A stretch of 64,000 nt of DNA, taken from Holosporales bacterium (GTDB lineage: Bacteria > Pseudomonadota > Alphaproteobacteria > Paracaedibacterales > CANFPP01). Below, one piece after another: positions 56,661 to 60,043 of the stretch (position 1 is the first letter of the stretch; the number at the start of each line of letters is the position of its first letter). A program made the translations under genes and the position numbers. The DNA lies in assembly GCA_947449005.1 (NCBI GenBank), contig CANFPP010000009.1:796-64795 (forward strand), written 5' to 3'. A model generated the notes under the pieces. That model saw only the letters and a program-made list of their open reading frames with translations. It was not told the origin of the DNA and ran no database searches.

Positions 56661-57050
56661 TTAATAGTAATGCTTAGAAAATATTTTTAATTCATCAATA
56701 AATGCATCTGTTAAAGCCTTAAAGAATCCAGCTTCTGATGTCGGCTCTGTCTGAGTTCTAGGAACTGGTTTTTTCGAAGGATTACTGTAAGTTGATGCAT
56801 ATTGGCCCGGATAATACTCCGCCAACTGTTCTAGAAAATTCTGAGAGAAATCTCTAAAATTTGCACCTGTTAATTTTTGATTTACATTCATCGCTAATAA
56901 ATTTTTATCGACATGTATCTTTCTTTTTTCATTAACCGTTGGTTCAAATTCTATTTCGGCAGCATTTATAGTGTTTGAAATGAAAATTAAACTAAATACA
57001 ATTAGAGGCTTAATATCAAAGTATGGCGCCTTTTTTGTGCACGTCTTCAT
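56661..57050 (-). CDS. Truncated AzoR paralogue (N-terminal half only) with its own signal peptide
   Basis: 'KNLLAMNVNQKLTGANFRDFSQNFLEQLAEYYPGQYASTY..KKPVP' is collinear with residues of about 42-90 of the neighbouring AzoR. It ends before the PMHNF FMN-binding segment. Its start overlaps the upstream gene's stop by 4 nt. Confidence 0.55.
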   Translation of the reverse strand: MKTCTKKAPYFDIKPLIVFSLIFISNTINAAEIEFEPTVNEKRKIHVDKNLLAMNVNQKLTGANFRDFSQNFLEQLAEYYPGQYASTYSNPSKKPVPRTQTEPTSEAGFFKALTDAFIDELKIFSKHYY

Positions 57051-57748
57051 ACTTGCAGTCCTTCATTATAGGTTTGTAAATTTAAGGTCTGTTCTGCAAT
57101 GACAGGGATATTTTTCTGTAAATATAAATTGTGGAAATTAAATATGATTTCGTGCTCTAAAATTTTGCCCACGTCATTGATTTCTGTGTTTATTTTTCTT
57201 GCATAATCTGCAAGAAAAATATCTCTACAACTTTTTTGAACGTTCATAACGTACGTCTTAGGACGGCTCTCATAAAATGATCCCCATATGTTTTTTACAG
57301 GCACTCGATCTTCAAGAGCATCATTGAGATAGGTTGTATGAATACTAAGCCGATTAAAAAGTATTTGGACTTTTTTGGTGAGGGTTACCAATACATACAA
57401 AGAGCGTTTTTCATATAGGATGTAAGGCAATAGTTTATATAGGTGGAGGCCAAACCCTTTTTTTGTAGAAATAAAACTACCAACTTCAGAGGTTACTAGA
57501 TCTCCAAATGCAAATATTTCTTTCTCAAGAGGAGTATCTAAATAACATTCAGAAAATAATTTTTTATTTTTCCTGTATGTGATACCAAAGCTGGCGTAAA
57601 TTTCTTCTCCGCTTTCAAGATAGATAAACTCATCTGGACAAGGGTTTACATTAGCATTGTAATTTTCTTTATAAACATCTTGAGTATGTTGTTTTATTTT
57701 CTTGCCAACTATACTGTCTGGTAATGCTGATTTTATTTTATAATTCAT
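57047..57748 (-). CDS. Thermostable-hemolysin (delta-VPH, T_hemolysin) family protein, GNAT-like putative acyltransferase
   Basis: 'LFSECYLDTPLEKEI', 'SEVGSFIS', 'LVTLTKKVQILFNRLSI..TYLNDA', 'NIWGSFYESRPKTYVMNV' match my memory of the family consensus (LF.E.YL, vGnLa, fTat..l.N.f.rLG, WGsYY...P.V). Confidence 0.6.
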   Translation of the reverse strand: MNYKIKSALPDSIVGKKIKQHTQDVYKENYNANVNPCPDEFIYLESGEEIYASFGITYRKNKKLFSECYLDTPLEKEIFAFGDLVTSEVGSFISTKKGFGLHLYKLLPYILYEKRSLYVLVTLTKKVQILFNRLSIHTTYLNDALEDRVPVKNIWGSFYESRPKTYVMNVQKSCRDIFLADYARKINTEINDVGKILEHEIIFNFHNLYLQKNIPVIAEQTLNLQTYNEGLQV

Positions 57749-59213
57749 TGATATAATCCTTATGAATACAAGAACGCCGTGGTCGACCCGTTATTGTGAA
57801 ATACTTTCTCTTGAAATCATCTGCATCAGAAATGGTTATGAAGTTTTGAATTTGTGCAAAGCTAGGAATTTCAAAGTTAGTTTCTTTGATAATCGATGCT
57901 ATATTAGAAACAGTTTTTGATTTTTTGTTTGCTAGGATGATGGCGGTCAAAGAATCTCTGCCTTCGCCAAGAATAATACAGTCTTCTACTTCACTAAATT
58001 TTTTTAGCTTTGATTCAACCCATTCAGGGCTAATGTTACGTGCATTCGAGAGAATTAATAAGTTCTTTTTTCTGCCCTTAATTGTTAGATATCTGTCTTT
58101 ATCAACTTCAACGAGATCTCCTGTATGTAGATACCCATCATCATCAATGTGACATGAACTTTCGTCTTTAGTAAAATAACCAGCGCAGAGTGTTGTTCCT
58201 TTTAGGAGGAGTTCCCCTTCACAGATTTTGTATTCTAAGTGAGGTAGAATTTTTCCAGCTGTACCTATTTTACGATCAGCAATTCCATTTATGCTGACAA
58301 CAGAAGTGGTTTCACTAAGACCATAACCCTCGTATATTTTTATTCCTTTTTGATCAAGACTGTTAATGACGTCATAATTTACTTTTGCGCCTCCGGTAAC
58401 ATAATACGCATCTTTAGAAAAACCATCTAAACAAGGAAGCTGATTAAGGTCATTTAAAAGTCTTGGTGCAAGGTAGATAAAGTTGGGTTTATGTTTTTGT
58501 ATAAGATCTAAAAACGTATCAGATGTATTACCATGTTTTCCGAATTCATTCATGGATTCAGGAAGAAGGATCAGTTTCCCCCCTGTTAGCAACGTACAAT
58601 AAATTGCAAAAATCTGTTCTACTAATAACGATAAGGGAATTAAGGAAAGATAGGTTAATTCTTGCTTAGGAAATACACTTAATAAACTTTCCGTTAAAGC
58701 CCTTAACGACTCATCTTTAATCAATACGCCTTTTGGATCTGAAGTGGTGCCTGATGTATGAATAATTTTGATAATGTTCTCAGATACATTAAGTCCATCA
58801 ATACGTTGTTTATCACCATTCAACAGTTTGCCATTAACCACATTTAAGATTGGTTTTTCAGGGAGGATAGATTGTAGGCGATTTGCATCTGCATCATTTC
58901 TCACCAGAACGATTTCGACATTCATTAACAGAGATTTAATTTGACCGTCTTCAAATTCTAAAGGAATCGGCAAAGTAACAGCCTGTTCCTTTATGCAAGT
59001 GAGGTCTGCTATGATAAAGTCATAGCTTGTTTTCATGGCAATGCCGATGATTCTCCGTTTTAAATCTGAGAAACTAGCTATTCTTAATTTTTCTTTTAAT
59101 AACTCTATATCATCCAAAATTTGACGATGAGTTATGCTCATATCATCAGCTAAAATCCAGACTTTGTTTGGGTTTTGATTTAGTTTCTTAAATAATTGAT
59201 TTGAAAAAGTCAT
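57738..59213 (-). CDS. AMP-dependent synthetase/ligase (acyl-CoA synthetase or fatty-acyl-AMP ligase-like)
   Basis: 'IIHTSGTTSDPKGVLI', 'YEGYGLSETTS', 'LHTGDLVEVDKDRYLTIKGRKKNLL'. 491 aa. Overlaps both neighbours. Confidence 0.88.
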   Translation of the reverse strand: MTFSNQLFKKLNQNPNKVWILADDMSITHRQILDDIELLKEKLRIASFSDLKRRIIGIAMKTSYDFIIADLTCIKEQAVTLPIPLEFEDGQIKSLLMNVEIVLVRNDADANRLQSILPEKPILNVVNGKLLNGDKQRIDGLNVSENIIKIIHTSGTTSDPKGVLIKDESLRALTESLLSVFPKQELTYLSLIPLSLLVEQIFAIYCTLLTGGKLILLPESMNEFGKHGNTSDTFLDLIQKHKPNFIYLAPRLLNDLNQLPCLDGFSKDAYYVTGGAKVNYDVINSLDQKGIKIYEGYGLSETTSVVSINGIADRKIGTAGKILPHLEYKICEGELLLKGTTLCAGYFTKDESSCHIDDDGYLHTGDLVEVDKDRYLTIKGRKKNLLILSNARNISPEWVESKLKKFSEVEDCIILGEGRDSLTAIILANKKSKTVSNIASIIKETNFEIPSFAQIQNFITISDADDFKRKYFTITGRPRRSCIHKDYINEL

Positions 59214-60043
59214 AGATATCCTTGCCCCCCAAACAGCACTCTGTTTGAATCAAGAATTTCTTCTCTGCCATGCATAACTCGATGGTTATTAAGGATGGCA
59301 ACATCACCATCTTCCAGGCCAATTGGATATGTTTCTCTTTCGCAACTCTCTACAATTTCACTGATGATGGAAGGATTGATCAAACTACCGTCGGACCAGG
59401 TAACACGTGGAATATCGTAGTTTACAGAAGGGGCTAAAACACAGTGAGCTTGGACCGGTAATTGTGACATCGGATCGATATAGACGGCATGTCTTCTAAC
59501 TCTCCACTCAATTCTCCCATTGTCGTGTTCCGTGACTTGAGTGTCTTCAGGTAAAAATGGTTTTATCTCATCTAATGATTTTACTTCTTTGTTTAATTCT
59601 GTAGAGAAATATCTCTTCCACCTTGGTTCATCGATAAATCGAGTATACATAATCTTTCTGTTTTGTAATAATTCTGCTGTCTTTTTTGACAAATGTTGAA
59701 ATGCTTTCACTCCATCACAGTAAGTCGTTTGCGATCTTTTTTTAGGAGGTTTTTGACAGTAAAAAAATTGAAAATCGGGAACATAAGGGGAGTTGCCATT
59801 TTCTAAATGTAATCCCATCTCCATATCTCCAGACATAATTAGCTGGGAGTTTTTTGTAAAAGCTTTACGTGCAGGATCACTTGTTATTCTTGAAGCAATA
59901 TTTCCTATAAATGTGGAAAAAGTATCAACCGATACATCAAACCCTTTTAAAAGTAGTAATCCATTTTCTTTTAAGTTTTTTAATATGTATTCTTTTTCGA
60001 GATCTACAATATTTTCTTTTTTGTTATTAATAATAACTTTCAT
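59210..60043 (-). CDS. TauD/TfdA (clavaminate-synthase-like) Fe(II)/2-oxoglutarate dioxygenase
   Basis: 'MGLHLENG' (HxE facial-triad half) and distal 'LNNHRVMHGRE' (His plus Arg). 277 aa. First gene of the overlapping operon. Confidence 0.72.
   Translation of the reverse strand: MKVIINNKKENIVDLEKEYILKNLKENGLLLLKGFDVSVDTFSTFIGNIASRITSDPARKAFTKNSQLIMSGDMEMGLHLENGNSPYVPDFQFFYCQKPPKKRSQTTYCDGVKAFQHLSKKTAELLQNRKIMYTRFIDEPRWKRYFSTELNKEVKSLDEIKPFLPEDTQVTEHDNGRIEWRVRRHAVYIDPMSQLPVQAHCVLAPSVNYDIPRVTWSDGSLINPSIISEIVESCERETYPIGLEDGDVAILNNHRVMHGREEILDSNRVLFGGQGYL

Follow-up and report, generated by a model that had tools for sequence, protein, structure and literature searches.

A mobile cassette linking a 'thermostable hemolysin' family protein to an adenylating ligase and a TauD-type oxygenase in a Holosporales bacterium: a probable acyl-amide pathway

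The window analysed here, a 64,000-nucleotide stretch of contig CANFPP010000009.1 (positions 796 to 64,795) from a Holosporales bacterium (GenBank assembly GCA_947449005.1), carries on its reverse strand a compact cassette of six intact genes and one gene remnant (Table 1). The first three genes, the triad, encode a TauD-type Fe(II)/2-oxoglutarate (2OG) oxygenase, an adenylating ligase and a protein of the T_hemolysin family (PF12261); they are followed by the remnant of an AzoR-like gene, a complete AzoR homologue, an O-methyltransferase (OMT) and an amidase. The triad genes overlap one another, by 4 nt between the oxygenase and ligase genes (59210-59213) and by 11 nt between the ligase and T_hemolysin genes (57738-57748), and the stop codon of the latter shares the sequence ATGA (57047-57050) with the start codon of the AzoR remnant. 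An earlier interpretation made without database searches (hereafter the sequence-only reading) had described the three genes, these overlaps and the run-on into a truncated azoR-like gene, all of which are borne out by the open reading frames (ORFs), by Pfam and by three relatives in which the same overlaps recur. The three-gene operon is thus real, but the coordinates given for it take in only half of the conserved unit. The AzoR, OMT and amidase genes, previously described as following on the same strand, belong with the triad, as judged from the relatives, from blastn and from Streptomyces.

The extent of the unit is defined by nucleotide homology to the three relatives, which covers positions 53523-60090 and no other part of the window, the flanks being unrelated (blastn). 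Confinement of the homology to this interval identifies a discrete 6.6-kb unit, about twice the stretch originally noted. Only four close relatives of the T_hemolysin protein (54-66% identity) emerged when 5.8 billion proteins were searched; the relatives' contigs are designated L002-L004, L005-L007 and L008, L005 being from 'Alphaproteobacteria bacterium 16-39-46'. A single-protein query for related loci found nothing. Every sufficiently long contig of the relatives displays the order TauD, ligase, T_hemolysin, one or two AzoR genes, OMT and amidase, and the 4-nt and 11-nt overlaps are identical in L002, L005/L006 and L008; repetition in three independent relatives places the order and the overlaps beyond chance. 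The six cassette proteins are 43-81% identical to their counterparts in L002, L005/L006 and L008 (BLASTP). Ratios of non-synonymous to synonymous substitution rates (dN/dS) are 0.07-0.22 for all six genes where dS is estimable, indicating purifying selection; synonymous sites are near saturation, and dS is not estimable for two of the L008 comparisons. The other 61 species genomes of the host's order yielded no T_hemolysin homologue. In the relatives the cassette borders on a Tn3 transposase and an integrase (L002) or on a Tn3 fragment (L005), and in L008 on an integrase together with AbiEii-family and TraD-like genes. These absences and flanks show that the cassette moves horizontally. The window itself bears no remnant of a transposase or integrase, and the block is not flanked by any exact repeat of at least 11 nt; its GC content (0.348) differs little from the 0.369 of the window. 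The source genome is 1.9 Mb and 91% complete.

Table 1. Features of the cassette and of its surroundings, in window coordinates.
Feature	Positions	Strand	Evidence or remark
Fe(II)/2-oxoglutarate oxygenase, TauD/TfdA family, 277 aa	59210-60043	-	First cassette gene; Pfam PF02668, 88 bits
ANL-superfamily adenylating ligase, 491 aa	57738-59213	-	AMP-binding, 140 bits, plus AMP-binding_C_3
T_hemolysin (PF12261) protein, 233 aa	57047-57748	-	97.9 bits (cut-off 27), residues 16-173
AzoR-like remnant, 129 aa	56661-57050	-	N-terminal hydrophobic extension plus ~60 residues of the fold
AT-rich spacer, 148 nt	56513-56660	-	Sigma-70-like match at 56562-56535, 10/12 (consensus scan, pattern match only)
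AzoR-type FMN-dependent NADH:quinone/azo reductase homologue	55787-56512	-	Flavodoxin_2, 148 bits; FMN_red
Cation-dependent family-3 (catechol/caffeoyl-CoA type) O-methyltransferase	55024-55746	-	Methyltransf_3, 243 bits
Amidase-signature (Ser-cisSer-Lys) amidase	53478-54914	-	Last cassette gene; Pfam Amidase PF01425, 335.7 bits
Conserved 5' leader, upstream module boundary	60044-60090	-	blastn homology to relatives stops at 60090
Terminator-like hairpin 3' of the preceding LprI-like gene	60746-60760	-	Consensus scan, pattern match only
Divergent LuxR-type regulator, GerE helix-turn-helix plus modelled autoinducer-binding fold	45451-46299	-	Pfam and AlphaFold2

The T_hemolysin protein is the lowest-scoring member of its family in the sample (98 bits versus 109-214). 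It keeps all of the family-invariant residues, E67, Y69, E88, G90, W155, G156, Y159 and P163 (alignments of 37 and 65 members), within the conserved motifs LFSECYLD, EVGS, VTLT and WGSFYESRP. An AlphaFold2 model based on 65 family members has a predicted local distance difference test score (pLDDT) of 84.7 and a predicted template-modelling score (pTM) of 0.80, the C-terminal 35 residues being disordered. The first structures retrieved with this model by Foldseek are FeeM (2g0b), BjaI (5w8a), EsaI, LasI, MesI, RpaI and TofI, followed by generic GNATs; the FeeM/LuxI-type matches have E values of 1e-5 to 4e-4 and template-modelling (TM) scores of about 0.4-0.6. The best structural match, FeeM, is a long-chain N-acyl tyrosine synthase from soil environmental DNA with which sequence similarity is undetectable (Pfam, PDB sequence search). 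Likewise, the protein gave no match to the Autoind_synth profile (PF00765) at E<=0.01, a profile that detects two other genes in the genome, and, in contrast to the LuxI types, it displays conserved residues of its own (LFSExYLD, ExG, TxT and WGSYYxxxP). As modelled, T_hemolysin therefore has a LuxI/FeeM-type acyltransferase fold yet lies outside both sequence families, and its likeness to LuxI is one of resemblance, not membership. In the representative library a 510-residue protein (P0017) fuses an Acyl_transf_1 domain (malonyl-CoA:acyl carrier protein (ACP) transacylase-like) to a C-terminal T_hemolysin domain, which is consistent with acyl-thioester chemistry; on the basis of the model, T_hemolysin is predicted to be an acyl-thioester-dependent N-acyltransferase. 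PDB sequence matches to ChaB (E 0.16) and Bcl-xL were dismissed as noise; residues 1-33 (57650-57748) are weakly ChaB-like (NCBIfam, E 3e-4; PDB 1sg7, E 0.16), probably by chance. Among the papers searched none links thermostable hemolysin to an enzymatic role and none cites PF12261, and thermostable hemolysin in conjunction with a ligase, TauD or a gene cluster is mentioned only in a transcriptome study of Serratia and in one table entry for V. cholerae.

The constant partner of T_hemolysin is the ligase. PF12261 occurs in 99 of the 401 genomes that represent the phylum in the sample, and a full-length ligase adjoins T_hemolysin at 28 of 30 short loci and at all 30 of the 16-kb loci, which amounts to 49 of 51 distinct genomes. 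These ligases are 25-32% identical to the window enzyme and follow the T_hemolysin gene, the opposite of the order in the window. The usual operon comprises T_hemolysin, ligase, a heme-oxygenase-like diiron protein (Haem_oxygenas_2, PF14518), a short-chain dehydrogenase/reductase (SDR) and a tetratricopeptide repeat (TPR) protein of ~215 aa, the last three being found at 13, 18 and 18, respectively, of the 30 comparison loci, and it is often followed 3' by an OmpR-type response regulator and a histidine kinase. This heme-oxygenase-like diiron (HDO)-type operon occurs in most of the sampled genomes of one small-genome (about 1.3-3 Mb) family (examples are L044, L048, L049, L051, L053, L054, L060 and L064-L067), and in most genomes the ligase-T_hemolysin pair is kept without any amidase. 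The cassette in the window is not a canonical operon of this type, Pfam detecting no PF14518, SDR or TPR family member among its proteins. In V. cholerae, too, a ligase (DthC, VCA1110) adjoins dth (PMC12208996). The dth region and the HDO-SDR-TPR operon thus share with the window PF12261 and an obligate ligase partner; in the window, in contrast, the ligase precedes T_hemolysin, TauD stands in place of the diiron enzyme, the SDR, TPR protein and two-component system are missing, and AzoR, OMT and amidase are added.

The window ligase contains the motifs A3 (TSGTTSDPKG), A5 (EGYGLSE), A7 (TGD) and A8 (GRKKN), the last followed by an ACSL-like RNISPEWVE. Its top NCBIfam matches are long-chain-fatty-acid-CoA ligases, all far under their cut-offs. 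The PDB entries matched best, 6sq8 and 6h1b, bear the label 'fatty acid CoA ligase' and are probably the amide-bond synthetase McbA; FadD13 comes after them. In a maximum-likelihood tree of 38 ligases the window clade is sister to ligases from genome G263, Pantoea and three Streptomyces, the joint clade having support of 100/99, while the ligases of the TauD-linked loci of Paracoccus and genome G231 fall among the HDO-type enzymes. Given the long branch and biased composition of the window clade, its exact position needs caution.

The third member of the triad, the TauD oxygenase, keeps the iron/2OG motif HxE...H...R (GLHLENG, NNHRVMH and an Arg 10 residues on; NNHRVMHGREEILDSNR). Its nearest solved structures match weakly: At3g21360 (1y0z, E 4e-6) and SqoD (9yut, E 3e-5), a sulfonate-cleaving sulfoquinovose dioxygenase (PMC12951627). 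Both were judged too distant for a substrate to be read from them. At E<=1e-15 the subfamily occurs in only three of the 401 genomes (that of the window, G231 and G263), in each case beside T_hemolysin and the ligase. A tblastn search of 72,556 plasmids with TauD yielded 31 records, and seven contexts were inspected. In all six with at least 32% identity, genes annotated as 'thermostable hemolysin' and 'AMP-binding protein' stand beside TauD; these triads are on the conjugative plasmid of Pantoea agglomerans ZJU23, on Paracoccus pAK1, and on plasmids of Streptomyces angustmyceticus, S. sp. Mg1, S. sp. NBC_01423 and S. cellulosae. The seventh, a Nostoc gene with 28% identity, is in a nonribosomal peptide synthetase-polyketide synthase (PKS) cluster without T_hemolysin. 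The neighbours of the triads include exporters of the major facilitator superfamily (MFS) or LysE type, regulators of the MarR, AraC or LuxR type, and genes for type II PKS and gamma-butyrolactone functions. A further example is or1352-or1355 of Serratia sp. ATCC 39006, encoding in the order of the window a TauD/TfdA protein, an AMP-ligase, a delta-VPH-like protein and a Bcr/CflA (MFS) transporter; an rsmA mutation raises expression of this uncharacterised operon 184-fold (PMC4046660). The Serratia, Pantoea and Streptomyces triads thus consist of the same three families and are all uncharacterised. They differ from the cassette in that their proteins are only 26-35% identical to those of the window, their tailoring genes, regulators and exporters are different, and none has an exported AzoR-like protein.

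Several of these clusters extend beyond the triad. Two tandem class-III aminotransferase genes follow it in L052 (G263; 10884-13326) and L082 (the S. cellulosae plasmid; 10061-12654). In L079 (Streptomyces sp. Mg1 pSMg1-1) the cluster continues at 9508-12926 with an NAD_binding_9 FAD protein and a 3-carboxymuconate-cycloisomerase-like lyase, a pair that presumably resembles the aspartate-nitrosuccinate (nitrite-forming) pair CreE/CreD. The Pantoea plasmid (L076, 7882-8781) shows a weak AurF-like N-oxygenase match under the Pfam gathering cut-off. Nitrogen-oxidising enzymes thus stand alongside some TauD-type triads, the counterpart in the window being an 'azoreductase'-family protein. N-N or N-O chemistry may be a possibility in such clusters.

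The remaining cassette genes encode a flavoprotein, a methyltransferase and an amidase. The AzoR homologue bears an N-terminal hydrophobic extension of ~40 residues that is shared by five of the six full-length cluster copies; an exported FMN/NADH enzyme would be unusual. Two full AzoR copies are present in L005 and L008 where the window has a remnant and one copy. With the L005 copy as query (tblastn), only its N-terminal 133 residues were matched in the window, and the remnant is 31-33% identical to full-length copies. By these alignments, the 129-residue ORF is the N-terminal remnant of the first AzoR copy, intact in L005 and L008. The OMT, which is 75-81% identical to the relatives' copies, matches in the PDB 5lhm, 3tr6, 2hnk, 3r3h and human COMTD1 (2avd), with E values of 1e-54 to 1e-62, and then CCoAOMT (1sui, E 2e-47). 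The amidase displays the catalytic motifs ITIKD, GGSSGG and GGSIRVP, and among solved structures it comes nearest to urethanases, to ClbL of the colibactin pathway and to fatty acid amide hydrolase (FAAH). In the symbiont lineage AzoR, OMT and amidase are always with the triad, an observation that concerns a single lineage. The same families, however, turn up around the triad in another phylum. Streptomyces sp. Mg1 has the order amidase (PF01425), T_hemolysin, ligase, TauD and a Methyltransf_3/24 methyltransferase, and so shares both the amidase and the family-3-type methyltransferase with the window. In S. angustmyceticus the triad shares its cluster with an FMN_red flavodoxin, two methyltransferase genes (a Methyltransf_2 OMT and one of the Methyltransf_3/24 type) and an amidohydrolase. 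In G263 an amidase with 31% identity to the window enzyme lies ~2.5 kb downstream of the TauD gene. The recurrence of five of the six window families in another phylum, in a different order, argues that they belong to one pathway.

From the gene content, conservation, fold, cross-phylum linkage and mobility described above we infer the chemical steps, substrates and biological role that follow. Positions 53478-60090 are read as a single biosynthetic cassette, acquired horizontally and made up of six intact genes and one gene remnant. It would belong to a TauD-type branch of a very widespread, biochemically uncharacterised module of T_hemolysin and a dedicated ligase, and would specify one pathway for the synthesis and tailoring of an N-acyl amide. 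We assign this combined reading a probability of about 0.6. The ligase would activate a carboxylic acid with ATP, probably to the acyl-CoA, a fatty acid being likelier than an aryl acid by its motifs. T_hemolysin would then move the acyl group onto an amine or amino-acid acceptor to form the N-acyl amide, the Fe/2OG oxygenase would hydroxylate or otherwise oxidise the substrate or product, and the OMT, the AzoR-type flavoprotein and the amidase would tailor, reduce or process the intermediate or product. Tailoring by the latter three enzymes would imply a phenolic, catechol or quinone-like moiety in the molecule. A hydroxylated, O-methylated FeeM-type N-acyl aromatic amino acid is one candidate product, to which we attach only a small probability. 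In the fee cluster an N-acyl amino acid synthase is accompanied by tailoring enzymes, a logic that parallels the acyl amide and later oxidation proposed here. FeeM uses acyl-ACP from a dedicated carrier protein; in contrast, no carrier-protein gene is found in the cassette, and the ligase is the constant partner. Also among the top fold matches of T_hemolysin are the CoA-dependent acyl-homoserine lactone (AHL) synthases BjaI, RpaI and MesI (5w8a, 6wn0 and 6wns), the donors of which are acyl-CoAs in place of acyl-ACPs; acyl-CoA is what a dedicated ligase would provide. The proposal of an orphan small-molecule or lipid pathway made in the sequence-only reading is supported, as are its components: the GNAT fold (the nearest structures to the model being FeeM and the LuxI-type synthases), the pairing with an AMP-ligase, which the neighbourhood statistics uphold, and the oxygenase as a pathway member, which proves to be a dedicated partner in the three genomes and six plasmids.

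A number of observations weigh against this acyl-amide pathway. The structural likeness of T_hemolysin to FeeM and LuxI is moderate (TM about 0.5, identity 7-13%), and Pfam, NCBIfam and PDB sequence searches give no link to either family. The window ligase has an Arg (TGRPRR) at the presumed position of the catalytic A10 Lys, a position assigned by motif recognition and not by structural alignment; among T_hemolysin-linked ligases Arg is found there in most and Lys in a minority. The four cassettes with all six families in the same order represent a single lineage, such that their common order is not independent evidence. The window has no homologue of the relatives' MFS and LysE exporter genes, nor of their SDR gene. 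The two halves of the cassette are separated by the 148-nt spacer with its promoter-like match and by the decayed AzoR copy, and minimal triad operons without AzoR, OMT and amidase exist in Pantoea and Serratia (PMC4046660). The chief published counter-view is the reported cytotoxicity and lipid binding of recombinant delta-VFH (PMC11033176).

The separation of the halves raises the alternative of two unrelated modules, in which a biosynthetic triad is followed by an independent AzoR-OMT-amidase unit for quinone, catechol or amide detoxification or for housekeeping, with its own promoter. The minimal operons and the decay of the triad-adjacent AzoR copy fit such a division, as does the AT-rich spacer, within which a 10/12 sigma-70-like match precedes AzoR and an internal promoter for the downstream half is possible from the sequence pattern; in the same consensus scan sigma-70-like matches were no commoner than in shuffled sequence. 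Family-3 OMTs and AzoR are, moreover, common as stand-alone genes, and the best solved homologues of the OMT are single proteins from unrelated bacteria and human COMTD1. However, the 6.6-kb block moves whole and with sharp homology boundaries, amidase, Methyltransf_3/24 and flavin reductase genes recur with the triad in Streptomyces in another order, and G263 has an amidase near its triad. We therefore regard two separate modules as unlikely. As to transcription of the block as a whole, the terminator-like hairpin upstream suggests that the cassette may have its own promoter in the 884-nt AT-rich spacer.

A second alternative accepts the acyltransferase chemistry but assigns it to signalling. 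The triad would be a non-canonical CoA-dependent signal synthase, comparable to a ligase plus BjaI or RpaI, the acyl amide of which is sensed by divergent LuxR-type regulators that flank the cassette in the relatives. In its broadest form T_hemolysin plus ligase would be a new and widespread family of synthases, LuxI-like and CoA-dependent, that make diffusible acyl-amide signals, with an oxidase slot in which TauD and diiron enzymes are interchangeable and, in the symbiont clade, with a divergent LuxR-type receptor. Both forms appear distinctly unlikely to us. The top fold matches of T_hemolysin include all solved LuxI-type synthases, the CoA-dependent BjaI, RpaI and MesI among them, and a dedicated ligase partner is always present. 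A GerE regulator, a further point of likeness to the BjaI, RpaI and MesI systems, stands with an MFS gene beside the cassette in L002, L005/6 and L008. Two-component systems follow the HDO-type operons, and RsmA controls the Serratia operon (PMC4046660). The nearest window homologue of the flanking regulators (18-29% identity) is the gene at 45451-46299, in which Pfam detects GerE only and not Autoind_bind (PF03472), and a PDB profile search matches only the helix-turn-helix. Its AlphaFold2 model (pLDDT 82) nevertheless resembles a complete LuxR-type receptor with a ligand-binding domain: the top 35 Foldseek matches are all LuxR-type AHL receptors, full-length SdiA, RhlR, QscR, TraR, CviR and LasR among them, and ligand-binding domains alone match with TMt 0.5-0.57.

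Against signalling, LuxR-type regulators also serve as ordinary pathway regulators, other triads stand beside AraC, MarR or TetR regulators, and SAM (S-adenosylmethionine) binding by T_hemolysin is without support. The upstream alignment of the TauD gene shows no conservation beyond ~30-50 nt and no lux-box-like conserved element. The gene at 45451-46299 is ~7 kb from the cassette, with an opposite-strand gene for a 2,124-aa protein in between, and its closer homologues are in unrelated contexts and not adjacent to T_hemolysin clusters. Although the nearest LuxR-like gene, it was downgraded as a receptor for the cassette on this account, its link to the cassette in the window being weak. The argument of the sequence-only reading that the window contains three LuxR genes and no LuxI fails: the genome carries on other contigs two canonical LuxI genes (C4:56383-56763 and C1:28736-29197) and seven Autoind_bind LuxR genes. 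With canonical LuxI genes present there is no missing synthase to explain, and the case from a 'missing LuxI' was dropped. Two LuxI and seven LuxR-type receptors are many for a 1.9-Mb genome. The GerE regulators of ~280 aa to which 45451-46299 belongs (P0268-P0286) have a modelled autoinducer-binding fold that escapes the Pfam Autoind_bind profile; in alphaproteobacterial metagenome-assembled genomes they occur as several paralogues per contig, often beside an MFS gene. If the signal-synthase reading were true, the 'thermostable hemolysin' phenotype of Vibrio would be a side effect of the lipid product.

The cassette could also serve the breakdown or detoxification of fatty-acid amides or catechols that come from the host, a route in which the amidase frees the acid, the ligase feeds it into CoA metabolism, and the oxygenase, OMT and AzoR treat the amine or quinone part. 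The relationship of the amidase to FAAH, the presence of sulfonate-cleaving SqoD among the nearest solved relatives of TauD (PMC12951627), the standing of AzoR and catechol OMTs as classic detoxifying enzymes, and a host that looks like a protist symbiont are all in keeping with this. Such a route has no role for an acyltransferase of FeeM/LuxI fold, however, which is the family's invariant core; triads occur with exporters, PKS genes and gamma-butyrolactone regulators, and most genomes conserve the ligase-T_hemolysin pair with no amidase alongside, all of which makes a catabolic function improbable. Finally, that T_hemolysin is a secreted pore-forming or lipid-binding protein toxin with unrelated neighbours is disfavoured to the point of being highly improbable, for although haemolytic activity of cloned Vibrio delta-VPH/dth is reported in work cited by PMC4046660, and recombinant delta-VFH is reported to be cytotoxic, to bind phosphatidylserine and lipids and to induce pyroptosis (PMC11033176), the window protein has no N-terminal hydrophobic (signal-peptide-like) stretch discernible by eye, is modelled as a compact GNAT fold in which certain acidic and aromatic residues are invariant, is conserved in its translational coupling to an obligate ligase partner that adjoins it in 49 of 51 genomes, and is present in most sampled genomes of a small-genome family in which a toxin would be unexpected. 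These grounds concern the protein as toxin; the membrane-active lipid toxin raised as speculation in the sequence-only reading would be a separate possibility.

Two antisense ORFs of 88 aa are open on the forward strand, at 57886-58152 within the ligase gene and at 59793-60059 within the TauD gene, and are open in L002 too. They are most likely a by-product of coding-strand conservation.

PF12261 is annotated as 'thermostable hemolysin' and is counted as a virulence factor in many genome papers. The FeeM/LuxI-like fold, the near-universal ligase, the dedicated oxygenase subfamily and the same tailoring families in Proteobacteria and Streptomyces instead point to a family that provides the transferase of a two-enzyme acyl-amide synthase, which would make the cassette akin to the known LuxI/FeeM-fold acyl-amide synthase clusters. 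To this picture the present locus contributes a mobile 6.6-kb unit, the cross-phylum association of an amidase and a family-3 methyltransferase with the triad, and the LuxR-like neighbours. The enzymatic reading of PF12261 is directly testable with a small gene set. For the organism, the locus indicates that a reduced, protist-associated alphaproteobacterium has acquired a compact secondary-metabolite cassette and keeps it under purifying selection; the host or competing organisms may be the targets of its product.

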